This document shows, piece by piece, positions 11,068-35,035 of a stretch of DNA of 64,000 nucleotides. Positions within the stretch are counted from its first letter, which is position 1. Every line of letters begins with the position of its first letter. The stretch covers positions 27,260 to 91,259 of the forward strand of contig JACMND010000066.1 in NCBI GenBank assembly GCA_014378705.1. The letters are read 5' to 3'. The notes beneath the pieces were generated by a model that made no database searches, was not told the origin of the DNA, and saw only the letters and a list, made by a program, of their open reading frames with translations. The DNA comes from Pedobacter sp. Lineage in GTDB: Bacteria; Bacteroidota; Bacteroidia; Sphingobacteriales; Sphingobacteriaceae. Both the position numbers and the translations under genes were made by a program.

Positions 11068-11314
11068 GAATGAAACTTGCTCTGTATTTATTTTCGTAAT
11101 TAAACTAATAGAACTTTTAATTATAAACAAAATTAAGCCTATAAGATGTTAAAATGATGATTTCAGAATTTTTCTTTGATTTGGAAAAAATTATTGGTTC
11201 TTTTGAGGCTAAATACAAATTATTACGATTTTAAAATAGGAGATTGTCTATCGCATAAAACTTTACATATAACCACTTTTAAACTTAAATGAGGGGATTT
11301 AAAGTAGAAGTACT

Positions 11315-15363: not shown

Positions 15364-18300
15364 TTGTGGATCTTAACAACAATTATTTTGTTGTTTGCTG
15401 CATTAATATTCTCTCTTCAATTTAAATCAGTGCAAACCTTTGTAGCCAAAAAGGCTGCAAAATATTTGTCAAAAGAGCTACACACACGCGTTGAAGTTAA
15501 AAGTTTATATATCAAACCCTTTAAGTCTTTAGTTCTAGAAGGATTATATGTACAAGATCTTGAAAATGATACTTTAATTTATTCACCCAAGTTTACTATT
15601 GATATTTCAGAGTTTTCCATTGAACAGAGAATAATTGCTGTAAACCTTGCTCAAATGGACAACGGAAAGTTTTATATTAAACAATACAAAGACTCTGGAA
15701 CCAATTTGCAGTTTATCATAAATTACTTCAATCCAAAGACAAACGAACCCCGCAACACAACCCGCAAAGCGTATGACCTAACGCTTAAAAAAATTGTTTT
15801 GAACAACATCGCATTTAAGTACAAAAACTTTAATACGAGCACAATTATTAAAGGGATCAATTTTAATGATCTTTCGCTTAATCAGTTAAATGCGACCATT
15901 TTAAGTCTTGATACAAAAAAACATTTGTTGGCAGCTCATTTTAAAAATATAAGTTTTTATGAAAAAAGTGGTTTTCATTTAAAAAATCTAACCACGAAAG
16001 CTACAATTGATACCAATCAAATGGAATTTAAAAACCTTTTGCTTGAAACAACCCAAAGCAAATTTTCTAATTATTTGTTTTTAAGTTATAATTCATTTAA
16101 AGATTTTGGTGCTTTTATAAGCAAGGTTTATCTAAAATCGAATTTAACAAATAGTAAAATAAATAGTAAAGACATATCATACTTTGTTCCGCAGCTGCAA
16201 AAAATGAAACTTAATTTGCAGTTAGACGGGAATTTGAGTGGATATATTAATGACTTAAAGGCTAAAAAACTTACGCTTACCATTGGTAAAGCAACCTCTA
16301 TAAAGGGTGACTTTAAAATTAAAGGCCTGCCAAACATAAATCAAACTTCTTTAGACCTTAATTTTTCTAACGTTTCAACAAATAAACGGGACATTGACAA
16401 TATAATTTTCTTGGTTACCGGAAAAAAGAAAGCCATTACACCCCCTGTTTTGCAAAAGTTTGGAAATGTTAGTTTCAAAGGCCGTTTTACCGGTCTTACT
16501 GATAATTTCATTGCTTATGGTGAGTTCAAAACGGCCCTGGGCCGATTAGTTACTGACCTTCAGATGAAAATTCCAACGAAGGGAAACCCTAAATACAGCG
16601 GAATAATTAAAACGTTTGATTTCAATCTTGGAGATTTTTTAAACCAAAAGAGTTTAGGACGGACAACTCTGGTTGCCGAAATAGCGGGAAGTGGATTTAA
16701 CGTTAAAAGTTTAAACGAAAAAGTAATAAGCAATATTTCGTACATAGATATTAAGGGGTACAGGTATTCTAAAATAAAAATTGATGGTACTTTAATTAAC
16801 AATTTTTTCAATGGCAAAATTGACATAAATGATAAAAATGTAAAGTTAGATTTTAACGGGGGCGTAAATTTAAATCCTGAATTACCTGTGTTTAATTTCA
16901 ATGCGGTTATTAGGGGGGCAAATCTTCATGCTTTAAACCTTTTAAAAGATACAGTTCAGATTGATGCGGATTTCAATACTAATTTTACAGGTGATAATCT
17001 TGACAATATTCAAGGCAAATTTGACATACGAAGCATCCGGCTAACAAATACCAGGAACTCATTTGTAGTAGATTCTTTAGCGCTTTCGGCGATTGGAATT
17101 GGAAAAAACAGGGAACTAAAAATCAATTCTGATATTATGGATGCGAGCATTAAAGGCGAATATGACCTTAATACGCTTCCTGGCTATTTTAAATCAGTTG
17201 CAAAAACATACATTCCATCCCTTGATATTAAAAATTTTAAATCCGGTCCGCAAAATTTTCAATTTTCTTTGAATCTTAAATATTTTGAGCCGTTAAGTTT
17301 GCTATTTATTCCCGAATTGAAAATCCCGGAAGGAGCTAGTTTTACAGGGCTATTTAATTCCACAGATAATATCGCTAACCTGAATGGGTTTGCCAAATTG
17401 ATTTCCTACAACAAAATAAAAGTTAATAACTTTATTTTCGATCAGACAACTTCGCCTGTTGCGCTTAGTGTTTTTATGACTTCCGATCGGGTTGATTTAA
17501 CCGATAGTCTGTATATAAAAAACGTAAACATCGCCAATATTTTAAAGAATGACAGTTTAACTCTTAACGTTAAGCTTTCTGATAAAAATGCAGTTAACCA
17601 GCTTGATTTAAATGGTTTAGTCGAGTTTAGCAATGTGGCAGATTCGACCGCTAAATTAAGTATTTTGCCTTCGGATGTAATTATTAACATGGAAATTTGG
17701 CGAATTCAGGATAAGGTTTCATTTCGATTTGAAAATGGAAAAACTATTGTCAAAGACTTTGAACTTTTTAAAGACAATCAACTCCTGACAGTAAATGGGA
17801 TCATTTCAAAAGATCCGAAAGATGAACTTAATATTGGGTTTAATAAATTTCTACTCACCACTTTTAATCCCCTTACCAAACCTCTTGGCATCAATTTAAA
17901 AGGTGAACTTAATGGCACCGCTAAGTTAACTTCAATTAGTAAAACCCCGAGTGTTGAAGCTTCATTAACTATTGATACTTTAAACTTTAACAACATACCA
18001 ATTGGCAATCTAAATTTAGCAGCGGGTTTAGATAATCAAAGTAAACTTATTAACGTAAAGATGGACATCACTAATAACGATGTTAAAACACTTGATGTGG
18101 TAGGCACTTACAACGCCAACAGTGATGAAAATAATTTAAATATGGATGTAAAAATGAGAGATAATCAAGTTATTATCTTTCAACCGTTTCTAAAAAAACT
18201 TGTCTCCAATTTAAAAGGGCTGGTGTCAGCAGATCTTAAAGTTACTGGCAAACTTAAAAACCCTCAAATTAACGGGGAATTAAACCTTAAAAATGCCGGT

Positions 18301-19779
18301 CTAACGGTTAACTATTTAAAAACCCCTTATACGCTTACTGATAAAGTTACAATACAAAACAGTGTTGTAAACCTCTCTAATTTAGTTCTTAAAGATGTGC
18401 GCAATAACGAAGCGATTGCAAATGGAACCGTTGATTTAAAATCGCCAAATACACCAAATATAAATATAACCATTGTTGCCCGAAACTTTATGGCTTTAAA
18501 TACTACAGCCAGAGATAATCCGCTATATTATGGTGTAGCATATGGGACAGGCGTTTTCAGGTTTGATGGACCTACTAATAATTTAAAGATAAACATAGAT
18601 GCAAATACAGAAGTGGGCACTGTTTTTAACATTCCTTTAAATTCTTCTGAAACCGTTGGAGAAAATGACTTTATCACCTTTGTGGCAAAAGACTCTGCCC
18701 TTACAGTTAATAAAACATCGTCTTTTAATGGTTTAGTTATGAACTTTGACCTTCGGGTTGATGAGAAAACAGAAGTAAATATTTTTACTGACTTAGGGAA
18801 ATTGACCGGCCGGGGAAACGCTGGTTTAGATTTGCGGATTACCAGCCTTGGCGATTTTGAGATGTTTGGAGATTATCTTATATCTCAGGGAAAATTTGAA
18901 TTTACAGCCCAGGATTTTATTAATAAAATTTTTGATATAAACCAGGGTGGTTCAATTCGATGGACAGGAAACCCCACTGAGGCAACTATTAATTTAACGG
19001 CCCTTTACAATGTAAGAACCAGTATTAAACCTTTATACATTGCCGCAGGCAGAACTGAAGTTGTGGATCAAAGAGTTTTAGCGGAAGCTATTATGAATCT
19101 TAAAGGTTCACTTTTAAATCCTGTTATTGATTTCGACTTAAATTTTCCTGCTGATACCTACATTAAAGATGAGTTACAAAGTTATTTAAGTGATGTAAAT
19201 AATGTTAATCAACAGGCTCTAAGTTTAATTGTAAGAAGAAGTTTTGCGGAGGGCTCTGGAGCGAACTTAAATTTTGCTACTTCAACAGTACTAAGTGCTG
19301 GAACTGAACTTTTATTTAATAACTTAAATACCGTTATTACTCAAAGTTTAAATTTAAACTTTGTAGATTTTAATATCCGGTCATTAAATGAGGCAAGTGC
19401 ATCTTTTAGACTTTTAGACGGAAGATTAATATTAACCGGAGGAGTAACCGACCGCAGAGGAGTTTTAAATGAATTTAGCGTTCTGGGTAACTCTGTGGCA
19501 AGAGATGTTGAAGCATTGTATTTATTAAATAAAGACGGGAGTTTGGTGTTAAGGGCTTCAAACAGATTGAACAACCGAAATTTATTGAATTTAAACCTGG
19601 GTACAAATAACGATTATGTAAGCGCTATGGGATTGGTTTATCGGCAAGAGTTTGACAATGCTAACGAATTTTTAAAGGCACTAATAAGTCGGAACCGAAA
19701 AGAGAGCCGCAAAAAGTCAAAAGCAAAAGATAGCTCTCCGGCTATTGCCATAACACCAAAAACAGAAACGGAAAAATAA
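15364..19779 (+). CDS. Translocation/assembly module TamB-like protein (very large, N-terminally anchored, Asn/Lys-rich beta-rich protein)
   Basis: 1471 aa with a single N-terminal TM (ILTTIILLFAALIFSL). The composition is long, repetitive and beta-strand-like. It is divergent from tsaD, as is commonly seen in Bacteroidota. The track start is a TTG, so the exact start is uncertain. Confidence 0.72.
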   Translation: MWILTTIILLFAALIFSLQFKSVQTFVAKKAAKYLSKELHTRVEVKSLYIKPFKSLVLEGLYVQDLENDTLIYSPKFTIDISEFSIEQRIIAVNLAQMDNGKFYIKQYKDSGTNLQFIINYFNPKTNEPRNTTRKAYDLTLKKIVLNNIAFKYKNFNTSTIIKGINFNDLSLNQLNATILSLDTKKHLLAAHFKNISFYEKSGFHLKNLTTKATIDTNQMEFKNLLLETTQSKFSNYLFLSYNSFKDFGAFISKVYLKSNLTNSKINSKDISYFVPQLQKMKLNLQLDGNLSGYINDLKAKKLTLTIGKATSIKGDFKIKGLPNINQTSLDLNFSNVSTNKRDIDNIIFLVTGKKKAITPPVLQKFGNVSFKGRFTGLTDNFIAYGEFKTALGRLVTDLQMKIPTKGNPKYSGIIKTFDFNLGDFLNQKSLGRTTLVAEIAGSGFNVKSLNEKVISNISYIDIKGYRYSKIKIDGTLINNFFNGKIDINDKNVKLDFNGGVNLNPELPVFNFNAVIRGANLHALNLLKDTVQIDADFNTNFTGDNLDNIQGKFDIRSIRLTNTRNSFVVDSLALSAIGIGKNRELKINSDIMDASIKGEYDLNTLPGYFKSVAKTYIPSLDIKNFKSGPQNFQFSLNLKYFEPLSLLFIPELKIPEGASFTGLFNSTDNIANLNGFAKLISYNKIKVNNFIFDQTTSPVALSVFMTSDRVDLTDSLYIKNVNIANILKNDSLTLNVKLSDKNAVNQLDLNGLVEFSNVADSTAKLSILPSDVIINMEIWRIQDKVSFRFENGKTIVKDFELFKDNQLLTVNGIISKDPKDELNIGFNKFLLTTFNPLTKPLGINLKGELNGTAKLTSISKTPSVEASLTIDTLNFNNIPIGNLNLAAGLDNQSKLINVKMDITNNDVKTLDVVGTYNANSDENNLNMDVKMRDNQVIIFQPFLKKLVSNLKGLVSADLKVTGKLKNPQINGELNLKNAGLTVNYLKTPYTLTDKVTIQNSVVNLSNLVLKDVRNNEAIANGTVDLKSPNTPNINITIVARNFMALNTTARDNPLYYGVAYGTGVFRFDGPTNNLKINIDANTEVGTVFNIPLNSSETVGENDFITFVAKDSALTVNKTSSFNGLVMNFDLRVDEKTEVNIFTDLGKLTGRGNAGLDLRITSLGDFEMFGDYLISQGKFEFTAQDFINKIFDINQGGSIRWTGNPTEATINLTALYNVRTSIKPLYIAAGRTEVVDQRVLAEAIMNLKGSLLNPVIDFDLNFPADTYIKDELQSYLSDVNNVNQQALSLIVRRSFAEGSGANLNFATSTVLSAGTELLFNNLNTVITQSLNLNFVDFNIRSLNEASASFRLLDGRLILTGGVTDRRGVLNEFSVLGNSVARDVEALYLLNKDGSLVLRASNRLNNRNLLNLNLGTNNDYVSAMGLVYRQEFDNANEFLKALISRNRKESRKKSKAKDSSPAIAITPKTETEK

Positions 19780-22591: not shown

Positions 22592-22987
22592 TTAAGCGCC
22601 TAAAACACCAATCAAATATTGTATTTGATTATCCCAAATAAGCCTTCGATCCTGGATGCTATCTTCAGTTGCAAAATCAGTAATTGAAAGAGCCACATCA
22701 TTAGTCAACTCGTCTTGCAAAATTTCCATTTCAAAATAACAATGGGGCTCATCATCCAAAAACTTAAACTTTACAAGCTTATTATCTTTCATTGAAAGAA
22801 GCTTTGCTTTTTGTGTTTCTCCGTCCCACGTAAAAGTATAAATTTGGTCACGGTAGGATACATCATCCGCAAACCATTGAGCAAGGCCGTTAGGTTCGTT
22901 TAAAAAGCCAAATAAAATCTTTGGTGACGAATTCACTTCGTACTCCATACTGAACTTTTTCTTTTCTAGCATTAGGGGTAATTTCAA
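22592..22987 (-). CDS. START-like/SRPBCC-fold small protein
   Basis: 131 aa. The segment PKILFGFLNEPNGLAQWFADDV...YTFTWDG resembles the START-like domain proteins of Bacteroidota; this rests on recollection. Confidence 0.6.
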   Translation of the reverse strand: MKLPLMLEKKKFSMEYEVNSSPKILFGFLNEPNGLAQWFADDVSYRDQIYTFTWDGETQKAKLLSMKDNKLVKFKFLDDEPHCYFEMEILQDELTNDVALSITDFATEDSIQDRRLIWDNQIQYLIGVLGA

Positions 22988-23074: not shown

Positions 23075-23148
23075 GGCGGGGTAGCTCAGATGGTTAGAGC
23101 GCAGGATTCATAACCCTGAGGTCGGCAGTTCGATCCTGCTTCCCGCTA
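23075..23148 (+). tRNA. tRNA-Met: tRNA-Met (anticodon CAT), elongator-like; a lysidine-modified tRNA-Ile2 cannot be excluded
   Basis: 74-nt cloverleaf. Acceptor stem GGCGGGG/TCCCGCT has G1-U72 and G7-U66 wobbles. D arm is GCTC-AGATGGTTA-GAGC. Anticodon arm is CAGGA-TTCATAA-CCCTG with an A31/C39 mismatch. T arm is GGCAG-TTCGATC-CTGCT. No CCA is encoded, and there is no C1xA72 initiator signature. Confidence 0.93.
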
Positions 23149-23151
23149 CTT

Positions 23152-23172
23152 AAAAGCCCTAAATGGGCTTTT
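23152..23172 (+). terminator. Hairpin terminator after the tRNA
   Basis: AAAAGCCC - TAAAT - GGGCTTTT, followed by CTG. Confidence 0.6.
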
Positions 23173-23277
23173 CTGCTAATTGTGGAATATAACAATTTTA
23201 CTTTTATTAGATCATCAATTAAACTATATTTTGCCAGGAAAGATTGAGTTTCCGCAATAGCGATAAAAACCACCTAT

Positions 23278-23943
23278 ATGGAGAATGAAGATGAAATAAA
23301 ACCCGTTTTATTTTGCATTCCTGACATAACCGGCTTTACCAGATTTATAGCTACTGCTGATATAAATTATTCAAAGGAGGTTATTCCAATGCTACTAAGA
23401 AAATTAATTGACGCCAATATCATCAAAATGAATGTTGGAGAGATTGAGGGCGACGCTATCTTTTTTTATAAAAATGGCAGACTACCATCCGTGAGTAAAG
23501 TTGCTGAGCAATGCAAACACTTGTATATGACTTTCTCAAATTTTCTTGTTGACTTAAAAAAAAATAATCCTGTCAACTACGAAAAATACTTAGGTGATAA
23601 CCAATTGGGTTTAAAAATAATAATTCACTACGGCCACATTAGTTTTTCTAATATTAAAGGCCGTGTTAAGTTACTTGGTCAGGACGTAATTATTGCGCAC
23701 AAGCTACTTAAAAATGGTATTAATGAAAATAATTATATTCTATTAACAGAAAAATACCTTTCAAAAATTAGAAACAGGCAAAAATTGCAACAATCATTTC
23801 ATTGGGAAGAACTTCATTCTGGCAGTGAAAAGTATGAGTTTATTGGTGAAGTAAAATACAGATATATTACCCTTGATGAAATGCACTTTATGGACGATGT
23901 TGAATTAATTTCCGGGTTGAAAATTAATAGGATAAAATCATAA
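23278..23943 (+). CDS. Class III nucleotidyl-cyclase-fold protein (DUF2652-like)
   Basis: 221 aa with FCIPDITGFT and EIEGDAIFFY, the two metal-Asp segments of the cyclase homology domain. LKIIIHYGH...GQDVIIAHKLLK corresponds to the G-x-G...VNxAxR segment but has I and K at the canonical N and R positions. Confidence 0.65.
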   Translation: MENEDEIKPVLFCIPDITGFTRFIATADINYSKEVIPMLLRKLIDANIIKMNVGEIEGDAIFFYKNGRLPSVSKVAEQCKHLYMTFSNFLVDLKKNNPVNYEKYLGDNQLGLKIIIHYGHISFSNIKGRVKLLGQDVIIAHKLLKNGINENNYILLTEKYLSKIRNRQKLQQSFHWEELHSGSEKYEFIGEVKYRYITLDEMHFMDDVELISGLKINRIKS

Positions 23944-25105
23944 TTACAACAAAACCAACCGCACTTCCAATCATTCCTCCCATAAAAATATTATAAGACC
24001 AGGTTAAAAACCTGTATTTTCTTACCAAAACACTTCCAAGATGATAAATATCAACAGACATATTATCGTATAACTCTTGTTTGTGATCTTTTAAAACTTT
24101 AATCCGCTCCACAAACTCCTTGATTTGTAAGTGTGCAAAATTGCCGAAAAACAAAATGCTACTATCTTTCTTACTCAACTCATATTTTTCTTTAGAGGTA
24201 ACATTTGGCCTTGCAGATATGATGGCAAAAACAACAGCAAGTAAACTTGATAATAGCAAAAAAGCCATTGGGAAAACAAAACGGATACTCTCTACTCCGC
24301 CGTCAGAAGAAAATACAAAACCTGTTCCAAATAAAGTAATGACAAGGGAGATGATAATGGTGTTAATACTGATCATAATATTGGCCTTATTATCAGCAAT
24401 TGAGGTGAGGTTTATGTGATTATCATAAACTGATCGATACAAAGTTTCTATACCTCTGCCTTCTTTTTTGGGTTTTGCATTTTTTTTCTCATTCTCTGCA
24501 GTTTCGGTATCACTAAGTTTCTTAATCTTTGCATGTTGTTTTCTGATGTTTATCTCTCTTCGCACATTTAATGTTGCAATGGCTTTTTCAGTTTTAAAAT
24601 TTGTTTCAATTAAAAATTGCAATTGAACCTGTGCCCATTCCAATTCAGTATATTTTTTTTGGAGTATTCTCTCCCACTCAATCCGCAAAAGATCAGCACG
24701 ATGATTAAATTTTTTTGTTCCAAGATTTGTATAGTCGGCATCACTTAAAATTTCCTGTAAAGATCCATCTGTTTTTGCTTTATGTTTAGTTGATAAGATC
24801 AGGGTTTCTATTTCTGCAATATCATCATCCGGATAATTGCCTATTAAATATGACTTCATGATAATGATACTGGCTTCTTCGTGATCTTCATAAGTTTCTA
24901 CATAACCAGTATCATGAAACCAGGCAGCCAGCATCAAAACTTCCAAGTCCCGGCTGGTTAGATTATAAGATTTAGCCAGACGTTTACACGCTTTTACTGT
25001 TTCTAATGTATGCGTGTAGTTATGATAAACGTAATCAGCCTTTAATTTCTCTTTAAATAAATTAAATACATATTCCGAAACATCTTTAATCATTTGCCGA
25101 CTCAT
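23924..25105 (-). CDS. HD-domain phosphohydrolase fused to a C-terminal multi-TM domain resembling the Pycsar effector (PycTM/DUF5706-like) module
   Basis: 393 aa. HD motifs are YHNYTH, AAWFHDTGY and SDADY, followed by a Lys-rich linker. The C-terminal module has predicted TM helices NIMISINTIIISLVITLFGTGFVF, FVFPMAFLLLSSLLAVVFAIISA and IFMGGMIGSAVGFVVIMILSY. Its 3' end overlaps the convergent cyclase-like gene by 20 bp. Confidence 0.65.
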   Translation of the reverse strand: MSRQMIKDVSEYVFNLFKEKLKADYVYHNYTHTLETVKACKRLAKSYNLTSRDLEVLMLAAWFHDTGYVETYEDHEEASIIIMKSYLIGNYPDDDIAEIETLILSTKHKAKTDGSLQEILSDADYTNLGTKKFNHRADLLRIEWERILQKKYTELEWAQVQLQFLIETNFKTEKAIATLNVRREINIRKQHAKIKKLSDTETAENEKKNAKPKKEGRGIETLYRSVYDNHINLTSIADNKANIMISINTIIISLVITLFGTGFVFSSDGGVESIRFVFPMAFLLLSSLLAVVFAIISARPNVTSKEKYELSKKDSSILFFGNFAHLQIKEFVERIKVLKDHKQELYDNMSVDIYHLGSVLVRKYRFLTWSYNIFMGGMIGSAVGFVVIMILSY

Positions 25106-25211
25106 TATTATTTTTTGTAATTCTTACTTAATATATAAAACTGTGCCACCTTTCAGTTGTAAACCATGCACTCTGGTATGATTATGGTATTCTATTAATA
25201 AAAAAATTGGT

Positions 25212-26129
25212 ATGAATAAACTTGCAATACTCTTTGTAATCCTAGCTTTAACTTCATGCAATAACCCTTTACAAGAGAATGATTATAATTCTAAAAATAA
25301 AAAAATATTGAATCAAGTTGACCAACCAAAAAATCTAAAAGTGCACGAACTTCCCTCTAAATTAGTAGAAATATCTGGCATTAGTTTTTTGAATAACGAT
25401 ACGTTTTTTGCAATTCAGGACGAAGATGGAATATTATATGAATATAATTTAACCGAAAATAAGATTATAAACGAATTCCAATTTGGCCAGGCTGATGATT
25501 ACGAAGATGTTGTTATCGTAAAGGAGGATGTGTTTATAGTTATAAGTAATGGAACCATTATCAGAATTAGAGATTATCGTTCAGATAACAGAGTAATAAG
25601 TAAATTTAAAACTTCATTAAATAAAAAGAACGATATCGAAGGTTTAACGTTCCAACCGCTTAAAAATCGTTTGTTGTTAGCCGCAAAGGAAGGAGGTCTT
25701 AATCATGATAAAAAAGAGGTTGTTAAGGATATTTACGCATTTGATTTGAATACGATGGAATTAATAGAAAAACCGGTCTATTCAATTAAATTAAATGAAA
25801 TTGAGGAGTATTTTAAAGGAGATGCTTTAATGGAAAGCTCCAGAAAATTCTTAAAAGCTGTAGGTAACAGCAACATGAACAAAATTTTTAAATCATCCGC
25901 AATTACGGTACACCCACAAAATAATACCATTTTTATACTATCATCCATCAATAAACTTATTGCGGTTTTATCAACTGAAGGAAAACTGGTAAGAATAATT
26001 AAGTTTGAAGGAAAGGAGTTTACACAACCTGAAGGAATTTCATTTTCAAAAAATGGAAAACTTTATGTTTCAAATGAAGGCGGAAAACAAGGTATTGGAA
26101 ATGTTATTGAATTAGAATATGCAAATTAA
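25212..26129 (+). CDS. SdiA-regulated/YjiK-like beta-propeller lipoprotein
   Basis: 305 aa with the lipoprotein signal LALTSC. LPSKLVEISGISFLNNDTFFAIQDEDGILYEYNL and the C-terminal EGISFSKNGKLYVSNEGG are typical of the SdiA-regulated family. It overlaps the next ORF by 11 nt. Confidence 0.75.
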   Translation: MNKLAILFVILALTSCNNPLQENDYNSKNKKILNQVDQPKNLKVHELPSKLVEISGISFLNNDTFFAIQDEDGILYEYNLTENKIINEFQFGQADDYEDVVIVKEDVFIVISNGTIIRIRDYRSDNRVISKFKTSLNKKNDIEGLTFQPLKNRLLLAAKEGGLNHDKKEVVKDIYAFDLNTMELIEKPVYSIKLNEIEEYFKGDALMESSRKFLKAVGNSNMNKIFKSSAITVHPQNNTIFILSSINKLIAVLSTEGKLVRIIKFEGKEFTQPEGISFSKNGKLYVSNEGGKQGIGNVIELEYAN

Positions 26130-29100
26130 ATTTTTTCCGTTTGCGTTGCTATTTCTTTCATGTATTTTTTTCCAGGGTTGTACCAGTTTAAAACCATTTT
26201 ATGATAAATCCCAAAAAAAGTGGGAAGCTTCTCACCCACCAGACAGTTCAAAATTAAAATATTCGGTTTTCCTGATCGGCGATGCCGGTAATCCTGACAA
26301 GGATAAACAAGAACCGGTTTTAAAACTTTTGCAATCTCAGTTATTTCCCAAAGATACATTGGTTACCGCCGGCACTGTTTCAGATACGGTTTTTATAAAT
26401 TCTTCTCACCCGGAAGATGTGGTGATATTTCTTGGCGACAACATTTACGAGAGAGGCTTACCTGAAGAAAACGCTTCAGACCGAAAAGAGAAAGAGCGGC
26501 GTATTATATCACAAATGAACGTTGTAAAAAATTTTAAAGGCCGAAGTATAATTATTCCCGGGAATCATGACTGGAATGAAAGCAGTCCCGGCGGTTTAGA
26601 GGCAATAAACAGACAGGAAGCATTTATACAGCACTATCTGGATAGTGCAGATGTATTCTTGCCAAGCAATGGTTGCGGAGGCCCGGTAGAAATTCAGCTA
26701 AATAAAGATCTTGTTGTTATTGTTGTTGATTCTGAGTGGTGGCTCACAAAATATGATAAACCTTTAGCTCCGGATAATGGTTGCAGTGCTGCAAGCCGAC
26801 TTGATTTGATCCAGCAGGTAGAGGATATTGTGATAAGAAATCGTGGTAAAAATATTGTTTATGCTCAGCATCACCCACTTTACAGTAATGGCAGGCATGG
26901 TGGTAATTTTACTTTAAAAGATTATGTTTTTCCCCTAACACTGGTGCGGGATAATTGGTATGTTCCTCTGCCTGTAATTGGTTCCATTTATCCTCTACTT
27001 AGGCAATATGGCGTTTCAAGGCAAGACTTATCAAATAAAGATTACCAGCAACTTAAACGTGGATTGTTATCTGTTTTTGAAGAGCAAAAAAATGTGGTCA
27101 TCGCTGCAGGACATGAGCATGCGCTGCAACTTAACAAATACAAAAATATAAACCACATCATCAGCGGAGCAGGAAGTAAATCAACTTCTATGGCCAAAGG
27201 AAAAAACGCATTGTTTGCCCATGGTGGTGGGGGCTCTAAAGGTTTCGCCCGCCTTAATTATTATGATAATGGTCAATGTTGGGTAGAATTTTGGGAACCC
27301 ATAGGGGATGGTTCCACCGGGAAAGTCATTTTCAGAAACCCGTTGTATGCCATTCCTCCTAAAAATAAAGAAGAGATAAAAGAAGAAAAGCTCATTAGCT
27401 ATAAAGACAGCACCAGAACAGTGGTTGCCGGAAGTGATTATCAAGCCGGAAAATTAAAAAGATGGTTGTTTGGCGAACACTACCGCGACACTTGGGCAAC
27501 CCCTATAAACATTAAATATTTAGATCTTTCAGTATTTGCAGGAGGCTTAACACCTGTAAAAATGGGAGGTGGAAAACAAACTACCAGTTTACAGCTTGAG
27601 GGAAAAGACGGTAACTTATATCAATTTAGAACAGTTGACAAAGATCCCGCCGCACTCTTGCCGGAAGGATTTTTAAAAACTTTTGCTGAGGATTTGGTTC
27701 AGGATCAAATTTCATCTGCCCATCCTTATGGTGCATTAATTATTCCTGTTATGGCAAAAGCAATTGGAATATACCATACAAATCCGCAATTAGTGTATAT
27801 GCCATTTTCAACTCTGCTTGGTCCGTATATACAACAGGTAGGTGGGAAACTAGGAATTATTGAAGCACGTCCGGATGAAGATGTCTCTGATTTTAAGTCT
27901 TTCGGAAACGCGAAAAATGCGGTAAGTACTGCAAAAATGTACAAAGAGGTGCAGAGAGACAATGATAATGAGGTTGATCAGGAAATGTTTTTAAGAGCCC
28001 GTCTTTTTGATTTGTTAATTGGAGATTGGGACAGACATGAAGATCAGTGGCGATGGGCTGAGTTTAAAAAAACTAAAGGCACTTTGTTTAGGCCGATTCC
28101 AAGAGATCGTGATCAGGCTTTTACAAAATTTGACGGCATCATTCCAAGCCTGGTTAGTAAGGTTTTTCCAGATATACAATCTTTTAAAGATCAAATCAAA
28201 AACCCTGTAGATCTGTCTATTGCCTCCAGAAATTTAGATAGAAACCTGTTAAATAAATTATCATTGGATAAATGGAAAGAAACAGCAAAGGATATTGAAA
28301 TAAAGTTAACTGATGCGGTTATTGAACAAGCAGTTGCTGCAATGCCAGTAGAAGTGTTTAAAAACTCCGGCCAGGAAATTATTACAAAATTAAAATCCCG
28401 TCGTGCGCAACTAACCAAGGCCGCAGAGGAATATTACAAGGAGCTTGCTAAAGAAACTTCAATCGCAGGCTCTGATAAAAAGGAATTTATTTTGGTTAAC
28501 CGGCAATCAGAAAGCACTCATGTAACGATTTATAAAATTGATAAGGACGAGAAATTGGATAATAAAATTTATGATCGTGTTTTCGATAACAATCAAACTA
28601 AAGAAATTAATTTGTACGCTTTAAGCGGACTAGACAGTATTATTATTACAGGTTATTCCCTTAATGCCATAAAAATCCGGATAGTTGGCGGTGAAGGAAA
28701 TGATGCTTTTGCTGATCAGGCAACAAATGGCCGCACACTCTATTATGATTTAAATACAGAACAAAATAATATTAATAAAGGTAAAAACACGGCTTTAAGA
28801 CTTTCCAGCAAAAGCTGGATCAACAAATACGATCCAAACTCATTTGCTTACGATAAAGTAGGCGCAAAACCTTTTCTTGATTTCAATTCAGATGACGGTA
28901 TTTTTATTGGAGGTGGTTTCGGCATAAAACATTTTGGCTTCAGAAAAGAACCATATAGTTATGACCAAAGCTTGGTTGGTAATTACGCTCCTAAAACAGG
29001 TGCACATGTAATTCGCTATAAGGCCAATTTTTATTCTTTATTCGCAAGAAATTTTGATGTACTGCTCAATGCACAATACAATGGACCGCTTTATACATTT

Positions 29101-29892
29101 AACTATTATGGTCAGGGAAACTCGACTTTAAATGTTGGAGACGCTATTGACTACTATAGAATAAAGACTAAAAATTTAAGTTTGTCTTCTTACCTGCAAT
29201 ATAGATTTACGAAAGCATTTAAAGTTGGTATTGGACCTGGATACGAGTATTTCAGAGTTGAAAAACCGGAAAACAAATATATAACAAGCCCGGATTTCCC
29301 AGAGAAAGCTGATGTTGAAAATTCATCAAAATTCCTTTCTCTCAGATCATTCGCAGTAATAGATTTTGTAAACAACAGCTTATTTCCAAGCTCAGGGGTA
29401 CGATTAAGAATGGAAGCTAATTATTTAAATGAAATTAAGAATCAGTCAGATAAGTTTCTTCAGCTAAGATCAAGTTTCTCCTTTTATGCAACTCCAAATT
29501 TTAACTTTCCTATTACAGCGGCATTCAGATTTGGCGGAGCGACCAATATAGGTGATTACAAATTCTTTCAGGCCAACTCGCTGGGAAATAATTCAAACCT
29601 ACGAGGGTTCAGAAATAACCGGTTTTCTGGCCGCTCTTATATCTTTCAAAATTCTGAACTGAGGTTTAAGCTTACAAATTACCGGAACTATATTTTCACC
29701 GGCAATTTAGGTGCTTTCGGTTTCTTTGATTCTGGCAGGGTATTTTCAGATAACCCTGAACTTAGCACCTGGCATAAAGCTTATGGCCCGGGAATTTGGT
29801 TTAATTTTTACAATAAGATATTGCTTTCAGCAGGTTACGGAATATCAAAAGAAGGAAATTATATCAGCATTAAAAGTGGTTTAAGCTTTTAA
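26119..29892 (+). CDS. Large outer-membrane protein: N-terminal calcineurin-like metallophosphoesterase domain, unknown middle region and C-terminal Omp85/BamA-type beta-barrel
   Basis: 1257 aa with a signal peptide. Phosphoesterase motifs occur in order: GDAGNPD, GDNIYERG, GNHDW, HHPLYS and GHEHA. The C-terminal ~350 aa show alternating aromatic beta-strand patterns (NSNLRGFRNNRFSGRSYIFQNSELRF...), as in bacterial surface antigen (D15) barrels, and end in SF. Confidence 0.8.
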   Translation: MQIKFFPFALLFLSCIFFQGCTSLKPFYDKSQKKWEASHPPDSSKLKYSVFLIGDAGNPDKDKQEPVLKLLQSQLFPKDTLVTAGTVSDTVFINSSHPEDVVIFLGDNIYERGLPEENASDRKEKERRIISQMNVVKNFKGRSIIIPGNHDWNESSPGGLEAINRQEAFIQHYLDSADVFLPSNGCGGPVEIQLNKDLVVIVVDSEWWLTKYDKPLAPDNGCSAASRLDLIQQVEDIVIRNRGKNIVYAQHHPLYSNGRHGGNFTLKDYVFPLTLVRDNWYVPLPVIGSIYPLLRQYGVSRQDLSNKDYQQLKRGLLSVFEEQKNVVIAAGHEHALQLNKYKNINHIISGAGSKSTSMAKGKNALFAHGGGGSKGFARLNYYDNGQCWVEFWEPIGDGSTGKVIFRNPLYAIPPKNKEEIKEEKLISYKDSTRTVVAGSDYQAGKLKRWLFGEHYRDTWATPINIKYLDLSVFAGGLTPVKMGGGKQTTSLQLEGKDGNLYQFRTVDKDPAALLPEGFLKTFAEDLVQDQISSAHPYGALIIPVMAKAIGIYHTNPQLVYMPFSTLLGPYIQQVGGKLGIIEARPDEDVSDFKSFGNAKNAVSTAKMYKEVQRDNDNEVDQEMFLRARLFDLLIGDWDRHEDQWRWAEFKKTKGTLFRPIPRDRDQAFTKFDGIIPSLVSKVFPDIQSFKDQIKNPVDLSIASRNLDRNLLNKLSLDKWKETAKDIEIKLTDAVIEQAVAAMPVEVFKNSGQEIITKLKSRRAQLTKAAEEYYKELAKETSIAGSDKKEFILVNRQSESTHVTIYKIDKDEKLDNKIYDRVFDNNQTKEINLYALSGLDSIIITGYSLNAIKIRIVGGEGNDAFADQATNGRTLYYDLNTEQNNINKGKNTALRLSSKSWINKYDPNSFAYDKVGAKPFLDFNSDDGIFIGGGFGIKHFGFRKEPYSYDQSLVGNYAPKTGAHVIRYKANFYSLFARNFDVLLNAQYNGPLYTFNYYGQGNSTLNVGDAIDYYRIKTKNLSLSSYLQYRFTKAFKVGIGPGYEYFRVEKPENKYITSPDFPEKADVENSSKFLSLRSFAVIDFVNNSLFPSSGVRLRMEANYLNEIKNQSDKFLQLRSSFSFYATPNFNFPITAAFRFGGATNIGDYKFFQANSLGNNSNLRGFRNNRFSGRSYIFQNSELRFKLTNYRNYIFTGNLGAFGFFDSGRVFSDNPELSTWHKAYGPGIWFNFYNKILLSAGYGISKEGNYISIKSGLSF

Positions 29893-29921: not shown

Positions 29922-32723
29922 TCAAAATAAATCCAATTGTCCGTTGGTGTCTAAATCCACATCATCAGGATTTGTAATCTCCAGTTCAATTTTACGAGGT
30001 GTTTTTTGTTTAGCGTTCATATTTTCAGCTTCCGGCAAAGTAATATTATCTGCCGGTGTATTTTTATCCGTTTCCGGGATGTCCACAGCTAAACTTGACT
30101 TTTCTGAAGCCATGTGTTTAATCCCACCCTCATGTTCATCAAAAACAGTAGGGATTGTTTCTAAGGATATTTCAGCATTTGAATAAAATTCTACAGAAAT
30201 TGGTATTTGCACCGCAACCTCAGGTTCATTCTCTACAATCAATTCAATATTTCTTATTTCAAACGGGCTTAAGCGATTTCCCATGGCCTTCATTCCTTTC
30301 ACATCGATGGCCCCGGCAAGGTTAACTTCAATTATTTCAGGAGACTGTGCCTTTCCTTTAATAACTTCAAACGTCACTTTCGGCAATTTAGAACCGGATA
30401 TTAAAATCAATTTAGAGCCTGATTCTTCAGATATTATTACTGCTTTTTTACCAACTGGTATAATTTCAAAAATAAACCTCTTTAAGTAATAACTTTTTGA
30501 TTTACCATCTAAATGTATCAGGCTAAAAATTTTATTAGAATCATGTTTTTCAATGATTCTCAAATGATCATCAAAATGATTGCTTAGATCAAAGTTATTT
30601 AACTCGTAAACTCCGTCTCGGTTAAGTGTCAGTATCTTATCATTACCATCAAATTCACCAAGATATTTTCCCCTTCCGTCTATGTTCAACCGTTTTAAAA
30701 TTTCGTCGAACCAAATTTTGCGCCCGGCCAAAGTAGAAACGCCCTTACTTTTAAGAGTTACTTTTTTAATCGGAAATTTAGTAACGATGTTTCCCAAAGA
30801 ATTCCTGCCTTTTATAATTTGATGTGCAAAATCGAAATCAAATTGTAACTTCTTTAGTTTAGCATGCGGCTTTAACTGTATAGTTACAACTTCGGCCTCA
30901 CCATTTGGATTTGCTGTGAAATACAATAATTTTGAGCCCTTAGTCCCTTTCCCTGCATCATATTCTTTGTCGCGGTTCACACCCAAAACAGCAAATCTTT
31001 TTATAAAAGCGGCACCTGTTCCACCATCTTTATAAATTACATTGTAAACCGTCCGCTCATCGTTTTTCTTGAATACCTGAGCATAAATAATTCCCTTACC
31101 AACAAAGGTTTTATCTGCAACTTTAGACACGGTAAACTTTCCGTCTTCCCGAAAAACAATAATTTCATCCAAATCTGAGCAATCACAAATAAATTCATCT
31201 TTACGTAAGCCAGTTCCTATAAAACCATCTTCACGGTTTACATATAGTTTTACATTTGCTAAAGCAACTTTAGAAGCCTCTACTCTGTCAAAGGCCCTAA
31301 TTTCTGTCTTACGCTCCCTACCTGCGCCATATTTTGTTCTCAGTTTTTCAAACCAGAAAATTGTATATTCCGTTAGGTGTTTCAGATTTTTATTTACCTC
31401 TTTGATTTCATTTTCAAGAGATTTCATTTGCTCATCCGCCTTTTTAACATCAAAGCGGGTAATACTGCTCATTGGTTTATCAATCAGTTTTTTATAATCA
31501 TCGGCAACAATTTCCCTGTATAAACGAGATAAAAAAGGCGCAAACAGATTGGTTAAAACAACAAAAACAGTATCGAAATTACCCGAATTTTCATACTCAG
31601 GATTTTTATACATGCCCTCTTGAATAAATATCCTAAGCAAAGAACTAAAAAATATTTTTTCCTTTAGCTCGGCCAGCTTAATTTCCAGTTCCTGCTTTAA
31701 AAGAGATTTAGTATGATGCGTACTTTCTGTGAGAATGTCATTCACACTCATAAAATACGGCCTGTCGTTTTTTATGATGCAGGTGTTCGGCGATATAGAA
31801 ACTTCACAATCTGTAAAGGCATATAACGCATCTATAGTAACATCCGGCGAAATTCCAGCTGCCAGATGAATGACAATTTCTACTTCTTTAGCTGTATTGT
31901 CTTCTATCTTTTTAATTTTAATCTTGCCTTTGTCATTGGCGGCAATCACGCTGTCTATTAAACCTCCCGTAGTTGTTGTATACGGAATTTCGGTGATCGC
32001 AAGGGTCTTTTTATCTTTCTCAACAATACGGGCACGAACCCGGATTTTGCCCCCACGCATTCCTTCATTATAATTTGAGAAGTCTGCCATTCCTCCCATT
32101 TGAAAATCAGGTAATAGGGTTGAACTAATCCCTTTTAATACTTCAATAGAGGCATCAATCAACTCAATAAAATTATGGGGCATAATCTTGGTTGCCAATC
32201 CTACGGCAATACCATCAGCACCCTGAGCCAGAAGTAAGGGATATTTAACGGGTAAAGTTACCGGCTCGCGATTGCGGCCGTCATAACTACTTTGCCATTC
32301 GGTAGTATCCGGATTAAACACAACATCTAAAGCAAATTTTGACAAGCGTGCCTCAATGTATCTTGGGGCAGCGGCAGAATCTCCGGTAACGGGATCTCCC
32401 CAGTTTCCCTGCATATCTATCAGCAGGTTTTTTTGGCCTATCTGAACCATGGCATCACCAATTGAGGCATCGCCATGAGGATGGTACTTCATCGTGTTGC
32501 CGATTACATTGGCTGCTTTATTAAAACGGCCGTCATCCATCTCTTTTAAAGAATGAAGTATACGGCGTTGTACAGGCTTTAATCCATCAAAAATATGCGG
32601 AACAGCCCTATCAAGAATCACATAAGAAGCATAATCTAAAAACCAGTTTTCATATAAACCAGAAAGCGGGGTAACAGTATGTAAGGTTTCATCATCATTG
32701 ATGTGTTCAGTCTCGTCACTCAT
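29922..32723 (-). CDS. parC: DNA topoisomerase IV subunit A (GyrA/ParC family) with an acidic C-terminal tail
   Basis: 933 aa with LKPVQRRILH, KYHPHGD and the active-site Tyr context AAPRYIEARL. It is adjacent to parE. Confidence 0.9.
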   Translation of the reverse strand: MSDETEHINDDETLHTVTPLSGLYENWFLDYASYVILDRAVPHIFDGLKPVQRRILHSLKEMDDGRFNKAANVIGNTMKYHPHGDASIGDAMVQIGQKNLLIDMQGNWGDPVTGDSAAAPRYIEARLSKFALDVVFNPDTTEWQSSYDGRNREPVTLPVKYPLLLAQGADGIAVGLATKIMPHNFIELIDASIEVLKGISSTLLPDFQMGGMADFSNYNEGMRGGKIRVRARIVEKDKKTLAITEIPYTTTTGGLIDSVIAANDKGKIKIKKIEDNTAKEVEIVIHLAAGISPDVTIDALYAFTDCEVSISPNTCIIKNDRPYFMSVNDILTESTHHTKSLLKQELEIKLAELKEKIFFSSLLRIFIQEGMYKNPEYENSGNFDTVFVVLTNLFAPFLSRLYREIVADDYKKLIDKPMSSITRFDVKKADEQMKSLENEIKEVNKNLKHLTEYTIFWFEKLRTKYGAGRERKTEIRAFDRVEASKVALANVKLYVNREDGFIGTGLRKDEFICDCSDLDEIIVFREDGKFTVSKVADKTFVGKGIIYAQVFKKNDERTVYNVIYKDGGTGAAFIKRFAVLGVNRDKEYDAGKGTKGSKLLYFTANPNGEAEVVTIQLKPHAKLKKLQFDFDFAHQIIKGRNSLGNIVTKFPIKKVTLKSKGVSTLAGRKIWFDEILKRLNIDGRGKYLGEFDGNDKILTLNRDGVYELNNFDLSNHFDDHLRIIEKHDSNKIFSLIHLDGKSKSYYLKRFIFEIIPVGKKAVIISEESGSKLILISGSKLPKVTFEVIKGKAQSPEIIEVNLAGAIDVKGMKAMGNRLSPFEIRNIELIVENEPEVAVQIPISVEFYSNAEISLETIPTVFDEHEGGIKHMASEKSSLAVDIPETDKNTPADNITLPEAENMNAKQKTPRKIELEITNPDDVDLDTNGQLDLF

Positions 32724-32867
32724 CCTTATTATTGATTCTGTTTGGGATGGGTAAATATAAGTTTTCGGCCTAAATTAGTTCTGAAAACTTACTCACAGCA
32801 TATTAAACAAGTGCTCATTTTAATTTTAATACGAGTTAAATTTAGCAGGAAAGGGTGCCCGGATAAA

Positions 32868-34775
32868 TTATTCATCAAACACCGGCTCCTTCACTAAGGA
32901 TTGACCATTAATTATTTCCGGAACTAAATTTTCTTCCTGAATAAAATCCATTTCGACACGTAAATTTTTAATGATATGTTGCTGCCTGTCAGGTGTATTT
33001 TTGCCCATGTAATATTCAAGCAGGCTTTTGATACTTTGCTCTTTTGACATGATAACCGGATCTAAACGAATGTCTTTTCCAATAAAAAGCTCAAATTCAG
33101 ACGGTGATATTTCACCCAGACCTTTAAACCGGGTAATTTCTGGTTTATTGCCTAATTTGTGAATAGCTTTTTGTCTTTCTTCATCGCTATAACAATAAAT
33201 AGTTTCCTTTTTATTTCGCACCCTAAAAAGTGGTGTTTGCAATATAGAAACATGACCAGCTTTTACAAGATCAGGAAAAAACTGTAGAAAAAAGGTCATT
33301 AGCAACAGCCGGATATGCATCCCATCCACGTCCGCATCAGTAGCAACAACAATGTTATTGTACCGAAGATTATCTAATCCATCTTCAATATTTAAGGCAT
33401 GCTGTAATAAATTGAACTCCTCATTTTCATATACTATTTTCTTGGTTAGCCCATAGCAATTCAGCGGCTTGCCTTTTAAACTAAAAACTGCCTGAGTTTG
33501 TACATCTCTGGACTTTGTGATCGATCCGCTGGCCGAGTCTCCTTCCGTAATAAAAAGTGTTGTTTCTTGCTTACGTTCATGAGTATCTTCAAAATGAATC
33601 TTACAATCACGTAGCTTTCTGTTATGCAAAGAGGCCTTTTTGGCCCTGTCATTAGCGAGTTTTTTTATACCGGCAATATCTTTACGTTCACGTTCAGACT
33701 GCATGATACGTTTCAATAGTGAATCAGCGTCAGATGGGTGCCTGTGTAGATAATCGTCAAGCGATTTTTTTATAAAATCATGGATGAAAGTACGCACGGT
33801 TGGCCCTTCGGGAGCTATGTTTTGAGAGCCTAATTTAGTTTTTGTTTGTGATTCAAATACCGGCTCCTGAACACGTATTGAAATCGCAGAAACAATGGAA
33901 GCCCTGACATCAGCGGAATCAAATTCTTTTTTAAAAAACTCCCGTATTGTTTTGACAACTGCTTCCCTGAAAGCAGCCTGATGCGTACCTCCCTGAGTAG
34001 TGTGCTGTCCGTTTACAAATGAGTAATATTCTTCGCCGTATTGCTGCCCATGTGTCATGGCAACTTCAATATCTTCCCCTTTTAAATGGATAATTGGATA
34101 TCGGATGGTTTCAGAATCTGTATTCCTGGTTAAAAGATCATATAAGCCCCTTTCTGAAAAGAATTTTTTTCCGTTGAAATTAACCGTCAGTCCGGAATTA
34201 AGGAACACGTAATTCCAGATCATACTTTCCACAAATTCAGGAATGTATCTGTAGTGTCGAAATATAGAATCGTCCGGGTAAAAGATGACCAATGTTCCGT
34301 TGCGTTGTGTAGTTTCTATTTCCGGATGATCGGAAATTAATTCTCCCATTGAAAACTCAGCTTTTTTTGTCCGACCGTCACGAAATGACTGAACCACAAA
34401 ACTGGACGACAAGGCATTGGTCGCTTTTGTACCAACCCCGTTTAAACCAACTGATTTTTGGAAAGCTTTAGAATCATACTTGCCACCGGTGTTCATTTTC
34501 GAAACACATTCTACAACTTTTCCAAGCGGAATCCCACGCCCATAATCCCGGATCGAAACCTTTAAATCTGTAACTGTAACTTCTATTGTCCTGCCAGATC
34601 CCATCACGAATTCATCAATTGAATTATCAAGAATCTCTTTTAACAGCACATATATCCCATCATCATAAGCAGAACCATCGCCAAGTTTACCTATGTACAT
34701 CCCCGGACGAAGGCGTATATGCTCTTTCCAATCTAACGATCTGATATTATCTTCACTATATCCCAATTCTGCCAT
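32868..34775 (-). CDS. parE: DNA topoisomerase IV subunit B (GyrB/ParE family)
   Basis: It has GHKL ATPase motifs ([15 protein letters not shown]) and Toprim motifs ([24 protein letters not shown]). The start is set at the Met at 34775 ([11 protein letters not shown]...); the track ORF begins 9 codons earlier. Confidence 0.92.
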
Positions 34776-35035
34776 GTTTAATACAAATTTAATAGAATAC
34801 AAAGGTGCACAGTATAGTTAAATATTAACATTTAAACATTTTAAATCAGTATTTCTATCCGCGTTGTATACATTTTTATATTTCTATGTATAGGAAAATA
34901 GAATTAAATACTTGAGGCTTGCAAACCTAATTGTTTATTAATTTCTCATTGAATTACTAATCAGCACTTTAGTTTACCAACCTTTTTAATGGCATGTTAT
35001 TAGAATTAGTTTTTTTGTTAGCTAATCAATATCAA

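Follow-up and report, generated by a model that had tools for sequence, protein, structure and literature searches.

A convergent gene pair in the Pedobacter window

The DNA analyzed here, called the window, is a stretch of 64,000 nt from Pedobacter sp. (assembly GCA_014378705.1, contig JACMND010000066.1), and coordinates given without a locus number are positions in it. Its subject of interest is a pair of convergent genes, one coding for a small protein of the DUF2652 family and the other for a membrane protein, HD-PycTM, in which an HD phosphohydrolase domain is joined to a module of the PycTM type. The pair consists of the following features.

23278..23943 (+): DUF2652 protein, short form, 221 amino acids (aa), soluble (open reading frame (ORF) list, Pfam, predicted fold, hydropathy)
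23924..25105 (-): HD-PycTM protein, 393 aa, with a cytoplasmic HD phosphohydrolase, a Lys-rich helical linker and a PycTM-type module with three membrane helices
24731..25018 (-): HD domain core, Pfam residues 30-125; the helical fold covers about residues 1-170
24458..24541 (-): Lys-rich linker, residues 189-216, within a long helix in the model, the confidence of which falls at 210-220
23927..24457 (-): PycTM-type module, residues 217-393
23924..23943 (no strand): 20-bp overlap of the convergent 3' ends, read from the sequence

The DUF2652 ORF ends with TAA at 23941-23943 and the HD-PycTM ORF with TTA at 23924-23926 (reverse complement TAA), and the coding regions therefore overlap tail to tail by 20 bp. 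Both ORFs, their coordinates and this overlap agree with a preliminary description made from the sequence alone. Because the 3' ends overlap, there is no room for an intergenic terminator, and full-length transcripts of the two genes are partly antisense to each other. A scan of the region for sigma-70 promoters and terminators, which does not model Bacteroidota promoters, gave results at or below the shuffled expectation; the sole terminator-like hairpin in the scanned region (24000-24014, +) was within chance expectation. Such a 3' overlap, 4-35 bp long and most commonly 20 bp, is present in 47 of the 63 related loci. The convergent 3' overlap is real and conserved.

The adjoining features are as follows.

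25106..25211 (no strand): divergent intergenic region of 106 bp between the HD-PycTM gene and the SdiA-regulated-like gene (ORF coordinates), likely a control region shared by the two
25212..26129 (+): beta-propeller protein of the SdiA-regulated/phytase-like kind, 305 aa, N-terminus lipoprotein-like; gene 1 of the divergent operon, a companion of HD-PycTM across Bacteroidota
26119..29892 (+): metallophosphoesterase-Omp85 giant protein, 1257 aa; gene 2 of the divergent operon
23075-23149 (+): tRNA-Met, 128 bp upstream of the DUF2652 start

Directly 3' of tRNA-Met, at about 23152-23176 (+), a hairpin (AAAGCCC-TAAAT-GGGCTTT) is followed by a T-rich run. It was missed by the consensus scan and looks like the terminator of the tRNA gene. 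In addition, a TamB-family gene (15364-19779, +) lies about 6 kb from the Omp85-domain giant.

Domains and catalytic positions of the two proteins

The product of ORF 23278-23943 matched the DUF2652 family in Pfam (PF10851, 112.9 bits vs a cut-off of 22.1, E = 1.1e-32) and has no membrane segment (maximum 19-residue hydropathy 1.17). Its AlphaFold model, with 58 homologues as input (predicted local distance difference test score (pLDDT) 86.3, predicted template-modelling score 0.87), obtained 161 PDB matches at E <= 1e-3, and class III cyclases accounted for 50 of the 50 matches listed. CyaC (1.8e-9) and Cya2, a guanylyl cyclase, were the top matches, and rank 30 was taken by 7r65, the cUMP synthase of Pycsar. 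The class III nucleotidyl-cyclase fold, which the preliminary description had proposed from short motifs, is supported by this predicted structure. PF00211 was not matched by the window protein in the Pfam search, and the DUF2652 profile reached no solved cyclase among PDB sequences, giving only chance chromodomain matches. When the profile was aligned by hhalign to a canonical cyclase from one of our survey loci (L090; loci of the survey carry L numbers), the catalytic core was left unaligned. The catalytic positions were therefore placed by hand from canonical class III motifs, and all residue assignments given here for DUF2652 are such hand mappings.

Conservation was measured over 82 DUF2652 sequences, distant relatives included. 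The two metal-binding Asp residues of class III cyclases (F.D..GFT and GD motifs) are present as D16 (FCIPDITGFT) and D59 (EIEGDAIFFY), both invariant in 82/82 sequences, as are E55, E57, G58, K113, H117, K131, G134, H141, K145 and N146. The base-specifying positions are Glu55 and Lys131. E55 stands four residues ahead of D59, and guanylyl cyclases carry Glu four residues before the second metal Asp. These base-pocket residues and both metal Asp are invariant also in distant long-form members. The transition-state Asn and Arg of the V-N-x-A-x-R helix are lacking in the window protein. The Asn position is Ile138 here and Ile, Val or Thr, never Asn, across the 82 sequences; the Arg position is Lys142 here and in this lineage, and Arg in 14 of the 17 distant members. 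The motifs quoted in the preliminary description, with I and K at these two positions, are thus present and conserved.

At 50% identity the family falls into about 2000 clusters: a full HMMER scan gave 2023 cluster representatives with E <= 1e-3, of which 1193 reached E <= 1e-10. Most of the best 150 matches are about 355-390 aa long, and the extra C-terminal part of these long forms (about 360 aa; for example L068 7986-9050 and L078 7983-9053) is an SRPBCC/Polyketide_cyc2 ligand-binding domain. The 221-aa form in the window has no SRPBCC domain and represents a minority architecture. A free-standing START_2 gene of the SRPBCC superfamily (22592-22987, -) lies across tRNA-Met from the short DUF2652 gene. 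It was considered as the split-off SRPBCC domain of a long DUF2652, which is unlikely given its presence in only about 15 of 63 loci; the placement is probably coincidental.

The altered catalytic positions raise the possibility that DUF2652 is not a cyclase and serves as a pseudo-cyclase nucleotide-binding regulatory subunit, or as a nucleotidyl transferase with a non-cyclic product, and that it may modulate the HD enzyme by contact. The loss of Asn in all 82 sequences and the change of Arg to Lys in this lineage would fit such a role, as would the failure of the sequence profile to reach PF00211 or PDB cyclases, and the ligand-binding domain in most family members suggests small-molecule sensing. 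However, the metal Asp pair, the GD hairpin and a basic residue at the Arg position have been strictly maintained while the family diverged into more than 1000 clusters, a pattern expected of an active enzyme, and the whole predicted fold superposes on active cyclases. We regard a non-cyclase role as improbable.

In the HD-PycTM protein (ORF 23924-25105), Pfam identified PycTM (PF18967, 89.3 bits vs a cut-off of 27.2, E = 2.7e-25) and HD (PF01966, 30.6 bits vs a cut-off of 22, E = 4.6e-7). All three domain assignments of the preliminary description (DUF2652, HD and PycTM) are hence above Pfam cut-offs, and PADLOC agrees on the last of them: three PADLOC PycTM models (E = 6e-19 to 1e-11), together with several effector models of the 2TM type from the cyclic oligonucleotide-based antiphage signalling system (CBASS), cover residues of about 223-390 (from about 220 for the 2TM models) at nearly full model length. 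An NCBIfam search of the pair added nothing specific. The module begins with a cytoplasmic lead-in (RGIET..R..NH..L..IADNKAN), followed by the first two membrane segments (about 243-265 and 275-298), a cytoplasmic loop (299-368) with the conserved motifs LFFGNF and Y..D.Y.LG.VL..KY, and the third segment (about 371-393). Hydropathy gives three membrane segments, which narrows the earlier count of three or four, and places the Lys/Arg-rich linker and the 299-368 loop on the cytoplasmic side. The Lys-rich linker itself is present as described.

Among 95 HD-PycTM homologues (32-81% identical), H28, H32, H64, D65, H75, E76, D122, D124 and E143 are invariant, and so are many lead-in and loop positions of the PycTM module. 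The H...HD...D metal motif of the HD superfamily is present (H28/H32, H64-D65, D122/D124) together with the HD fold, in a model with pLDDT >90 at residues of about 10-200 and moderate values in the membrane part. By profile, the nearest solved relatives are 2pq7 (E = 3.5e-8), 3dto and 3djb, which are function-unassigned HD hydrolases. By fold, the nearest is 2pjq (Foldseek E = 5.6e-4), and after two such HD hydrolases comes a long series of the phosphodiesterases (PDEs) PDE5, PDE4 and PDE10 (E = 5e-3 to 5e-2, with 5e-3 for PDE5). The HD profile makes weak contact with PDE5 (E = 0.12), and phmmer of the HD region against PDB sequences obtained no match. The predicted structure is compatible with, and not proof of, a phosphodiesterase of cyclic nucleoside monophosphates (cNMPs).

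HD-PycTM is far more widespread than DUF2652, a point missed by the preliminary description. Searches with two queries, the second from a Flavobacteriales metagenome-assembled genome (MAG), gave at least 2819 and at least 7049 matches at E <= 1e-3 among 8000 scored candidates each. The family comprises more than 7000 clusters at 90% identity in Bacteroidota/Ignavibacteriota, and members named in the matches include Cytophagales, Chitinophagales and Ignavibacteria. The matches are about 400 aa long; most are annotated with both Pfam domains and some with PycTM only. NCBI labels the family 'Pycsar system effector family protein'. No publication naming DUF5706 or PF18967 was found in the literature searched, nor any mention there of the HD-PycTM fusion.

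Gene neighbourhoods of the two families

The whole survey covered 170 loci. Eighty were anchored on DUF2652 in species-representative genomes (63 related and 17 distant), and 90 diverse loci were anchored on HD-PycTM (8 exact-protein look-ups, 2 plasmid loci and 80 from a metagenome scan) and annotated with local profiles. HD-PycTM followed, on the opposite strand, in 61/61 Sphingobacteriaceae loci reaching past DUF2652. Genera with the convergent pair include Daejeonella, Pedobacter, Pelobium, Desertivirga and Hufsiella, with DUF2652 proteins 48-73% identical to that of the window. The two genes to the right of the pair, for the SdiA-regulated-like beta-propeller and the 1257-aa metallophosphoesterase-Omp85 protein, are equally conserved in this family. 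The left flank (RibBA, LptF/G, START_2, tRNA-Met) was found in only about 15 of the 63 related loci.

The distant DUF2652 loci belong to other orders (33-44% identity). HD-PycTM is a neighbour in 4 of these 17, each time in a different arrangement, and is their commonest recurrent neighbour; the metallophosphoesterase-Omp85 giant follows with 3/17, and no other family is common to three or more. The two genes are convergent in L062, co-directional with a 4-bp overlap in L070, co-directional with one gene between them in L068, and a few kb apart in L078. A further convergent pair, with a 61-bp gap and a DUF2652 protein of 216 aa, was found in an Ignavibacteriae MAG (L083). Co-directional pairs are thus limited to L070 and L068, and the pair is convergent here and in 61 related loci. 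A rough estimate, made on the assumptions of one copy per genome, a genome size of about 4-5 Mb and independence of the lineages, puts the probability of finding a given single-copy gene no more than 8 kb away at about 0.004, giving P of about 1e-6 for 4/17; adjacency by chance in the distant loci is very unlikely. The preliminary description had proposed to test whether adjacency of the two families exceeds chance, and in which orientation it occurs; it does exceed chance, in several orientations. One case of DUF2652/HD (PF01966) adjacency is listed for Hymenobacter in an earlier study (PMC4886424, Table 2).

Most distant DUF2652 genes have miscellaneous neighbours, and no cNMP-binding or defence domain was found among the 25 commonest Pfam families beside DUF2652 genes without HD-PycTM. 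In two Sphingobacteriales MAGs both genes are kept at some distance: four unrelated genes (DUF2461, a cupin and two of no known family) lie between them in L054 (3984-8931), and 0.9 kb without a long ORF in L055 (5739-6611).

Seen from the HD-PycTM side, the picture is different, and its commonest neighbours, the envelope phosphoesterase operon and ppk1, had escaped the preliminary description. DUF2652 stands beside HD-PycTM in 1 of the 90 diverse loci (L083). Of the 41 loci flanked by 4 kb or more on each side, 29 contain SdiA-regulated-like or metallophosphoesterase(-Omp85) genes, 10 contain ppk1 and none contains DUF2652. Where the upstream DNA was long enough (67 loci), the phosphoesterase operon lies immediately upstream of HD-PycTM and divergent to it in 35; in Ignavibacteriae (L083) the Metallophos and Omp85 parts are separate genes. 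Polyphosphate kinase (ppk1) is directly downstream (gap <= 60 bp) in 11/71 loci and within 8 kb in 21/90, and it was found near HD-PycTM in L062, L068, L081, L083, L085 and 17 metagenome loci (L092-L169). L083 also has a CHAD gene and two His_Phos_1 genes. The ppk1, CHAD and His_Phos_1 neighbours are hints of a polyphosphate/phosphate link of HD-PycTM.

These counts could mean that DUF2652 and HD-PycTM are neighbours by inheritance only. HD-PycTM would then be a membrane-anchored phosphohydrolase of a non-cyclic substrate, the phosphoesterase operon and ppk1 would be its partners in the metabolism of phosphate, polyphosphate or the envelope, and DUF2652 would be unrelated to it. The prevalence of the operon and ppk1 and the absence of DUF2652 in the 41 well-flanked loci, the CHAD and His_Phos_1 genes in L083 and the miscellaneous surroundings of most distant DUF2652 genes all agree with this. 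So do the Sphingobacteriaceae, which keep a four-gene block and not the pair alone, and L054, which retains both genes despite the four between them. Against it stand the recurrence of the adjacency in four or more different arrangements, in other orders and another phylum and including a 4-bp-overlap operon, with the low chance estimate given above, and the homology of the membrane module to an effector known to be activated by cNMPs.

A second, unrelated cyclase family in the same neighbourhood also speaks against inheritance alone. A membrane-anchored canonical class III cyclase, unrelated to DUF2652 and with the motifs FIDLRNST, YVGDE and NTASR (Asn and Arg intact), occurs in the HD-PycTM/phosphoesterase neighbourhood in L090 (7799-9007), L100 (2278-3346), L151 (3882-4982), L159 (5245-6345) and L168 (4596-5696), the last three grouped together, which makes about three lineages. 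The L090 copy lies 260 bp downstream of HD-PycTM and gave weak PADLOC PycC matches; the L100 copy looks split. The recurrence of two unrelated cyclase families beside HD-PycTM is the strongest indirect argument that HD-PycTM handles a cyclase product. By its neighbourhoods, DUF2652 is an optional, lineage-specific and replaceable partner of HD-PycTM, and we consider a link by inheritance only to be possible but rather doubtful.

Chromosomal setting, proposed function and known systems

Between 5 and 45 kb, the window encodes sulfite reductase, a UvrA-like ATPase, RecA, TsaD, TamB, RibBA, LptF/G and START_2, and further the pair, the envelope operon, ParC, ParE, CarA and enolase; the 20 kb to each side of the pair contain neither mobile nor defence genes. 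Besides PycTM/2TM, PADLOC matched mad3, mad8, AriA, PtuA, HEC-01A and a type II endonuclease in this set. As defence genes, these matches were rejected: they most likely represent core proteins such as the UvrA-like ATPase (8257-11130, -) and ParC/ParE (29922-34802, -), an attribution drawn from Pfam identities, the PADLOC output naming no matching proteins. Over 55-61 loci, the identities of DUF2652 and HD-PycTM to their window counterparts rise and fall with the identity of the flanking metallophosphoesterase-Omp85 giant (r = 0.87-0.97), as expected under vertical inheritance. In IMG/VR (2.9 million viral contigs), relatives of neither protein were found, and only three plasmids carry the PycTM part, all large, non-mobilizable and from Cytophagales. 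In the HD-PycTM loci that were inspected, most neighbouring genes are of the housekeeping kind and none forms a recognised defence cluster. The pair is a core, syntenic, non-mobile locus, and nothing in it resembles a defence island.

The tRNA-Met gene, which the preliminary description had placed about 130 bp from the pair, is indeed close (128 bp), and its presence is incidental, since it travels with the variable left flank. In L011 (5708-8000), L024 (4722-8000), L036 and L061, 1.3-3.3 kb of variable DNA separates tRNA-Met from DUF2652, coding for CheB-like and DinB-like proteins in L011 and for Fic and CBM9 proteins in L024. The tRNA gene was considered as an integration site of the module and rejected: it moves with the START_2/LptFG/RibBA flank, and the adjoining variable DNA is without integrase. 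Only miscellaneous proteins, and no integrase, were seen in the DNA between tRNA and DUF2652 or between the pair genes in L054.

The preliminary description had suggested a divergent cyclic-nucleotide signalling or abortive-infection pair, with HD degrading the signal or acting as an effector. In a Pycsar-like abortive-infection system of this kind, phage would trigger the cyclase, the nucleotide would open the PycTM pore and the cell would die, with HD as a safety catch or second effector. The homology to PycTM is solid and extends to CBASS 2TM effector models, the predicted DUF2652 fold resembles PycC (7r65), NCBI uses the Pycsar name for the family, and a cGMP-based Pycsar offshoot with membrane effectors has been reported. 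Of the hallmarks of Pycsar, the locus has the PycTM (PF18967) effector module and lacks a PycC-family cyclase, a co-directional operon and a patchy, mobile defence-island distribution. PADLOC PycC models were matched by neither the window DUF2652 nor two other DUF2652 proteins, and the genes are convergent. The same locus is kept across a family, diverging in parallel with a flanking core gene, among housekeeping neighbours and outside IMG/VR and mobilizable plasmids. On these grounds the abortive-infection reading is not supported, and we find it distinctly unlikely.

The best-supported reading, which we hold tentatively, is that the pair forms a vertically inherited chromosomal second-messenger module based on a cyclic nucleotide, and not a mobile defence system. 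From the domains, predicted folds, conservation of catalytic residues and gene neighbourhoods observed here, we infer the following scheme. The soluble DUF2652 protein would be a divergent class III cyclase producing a cyclic mononucleotide, most likely from a purine nucleoside triphosphate; GTP has been predicted as the substrate from a pair of the Glu55/Lys131 type (Ramakrishnan et al., 2016, PMC4886424). HD-PycTM, in the inner membrane, would sense this nucleotide on the cytoplasmic side, at the conserved lead-in and loop of its PycTM-type module, and sensing would alter the membrane, for instance its ion flux or permeability. The intact HD site, related in fold to cNMP phosphodiesterases, may hydrolyse the nucleotide and so end or tune the signal. 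The output would be coupled to the divergent envelope operon (SdiA-regulated-like/metallophosphoesterase-Omp85) and, for many relatives, also to polyphosphate kinase. Because of this tie to the phosphoesterase-Omp85 operon and polyphosphate kinase neighbours, the physiological theme is probably envelope or phosphate status.

Several points weigh against the second-messenger module. Because the canonical ribose-positioning Asn is replaced throughout DUF2652, cyclase activity is not assured from the sequences. The phosphodiesterase likeness of HD is weak and may reflect the shared HD core alone. In Sphingobacteriaceae, inherited synteny alone could explain the adjacency, given that the two further genes on the right are equally conserved. 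Moreover, DUF2652 is absent from 89/90 diverse HD-PycTM loci and HD-PycTM is absent within 8 kb of DUF2652 in 13/17 distant loci; any coupling is therefore lineage-restricted.

The PycTM module is, to our knowledge, known so far only as a phage-defence suicide effector. A wider and more speculative hypothesis, which we put forward as possible but unlikely, is that PycTM-type modules have a large housekeeping branch in Bacteroidota/Ignavibacteriota, in which they are fused to an HD phosphodiesterase and gated by a cyclic nucleotide. DUF2652 and canonical class III enzymes would be interchangeable sources of this nucleotide, and the branch would tie nucleotide signalling to outer-membrane phosphoesterase/polyphosphate physiology. 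In that case Pycsar effectors would descend from a core device or be its sisters, and DUF2652 would be a new active class III branch without Asn.

HD-PycTM is among the larger uncharacterised membrane families of Bacteroidota, and its context suggests that the automatic label 'Pycsar system effector' is misleading. cNMP signalling is little studied in Bacteroidota. If the cyclase link is true, a defence-type effector domain would be at work in ordinary physiology, DUF2652 would gain its first function, and the link would point to envelope/phosphate biology in Bacteroidota being under cyclic-nucleotide control. If it is false, the locus is still a caution against defence calls from domain content alone; the PADLOC AriA/PtuA/HEC-01A and mad3/mad8 matches are likewise a reminder that such calls need context.

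Part of this picture was already known. From a sample of 23 Bacteroidetes proteins, Ramakrishnan et al. (2016, Biol Direct 11:27, PMC4886424) inferred that DUF2652 is class III cyclase-like, with conserved metal Asp; they called the Bacteroidetes members, which have a Glu-Lys/Arg pair, 'guanylate cyclase-like' and noted one HD neighbour; the HD and PycTM architecture is visible in database annotation. That study does not include PycTM on the HD partner, the short vs long (SRPBCC) forms, the missing Asn, the family-wide convergent overlap or the wider neighbourhood. We found no report of the family-wide convergent pair, of a whole PycTM module on the HD partner, of the conserved phosphoesterase-Omp85/ppk1 neighbourhood, of an alternative canonical cyclase partner or of a housekeeping branch of this 'defence' domain.

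Compared with known systems, HD-PycTM shares the HD fold and the H...HD...D site with HD hydrolases (2pq7, 3dto/BH2835, 3djb, 2pjq) and class I PDEs (PDE5/4/10), but these all lack a fused membrane module, the PDEs resemble it only weakly, and the nearest relatives have no assigned substrate. CBASS 2TM and 'Pucsar' effectors are also small membrane modules activated by nucleotides made by a cyclase or CD-NTase, cGMP in the case of Pucsar (bioRxiv 2026); they differ in being defence-island genes, and no report of an HD fusion among them was found. With canonical class III cyclases (CyaC 1wc4, Cya2 2w01, Rv1900c 1ybu), DUF2652 shares the predicted fold (E down to 1.8e-9, template-modelling score about 0.6), the two metal Asp in the same motifs and, as in guanylyl cyclases, the Glu four residues before the second Asp, but it gives no sequence-profile match and has Ile for Asn and, in this lineage, Lys for Arg. 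Pycsar itself combines the pyrimidine cyclase PycC with a PycTM effector (Tal et al., 2021, as summarised in PMC11224242). The present locus resembles it in placing a gene of the class III cyclase fold beside a PycTM-module gene, to which canonical PycTM profiles align almost full-length. It differs in that the cyclase belongs to DUF2652 and not to the PycC/PF00211 family, the effector has an HD phosphohydrolase at its N-terminus, the two genes converge and overlap at their 3' ends within a core, syntenic, non-mobile locus, and the base-pocket residues suggest a purine rather than a pyrimidine.

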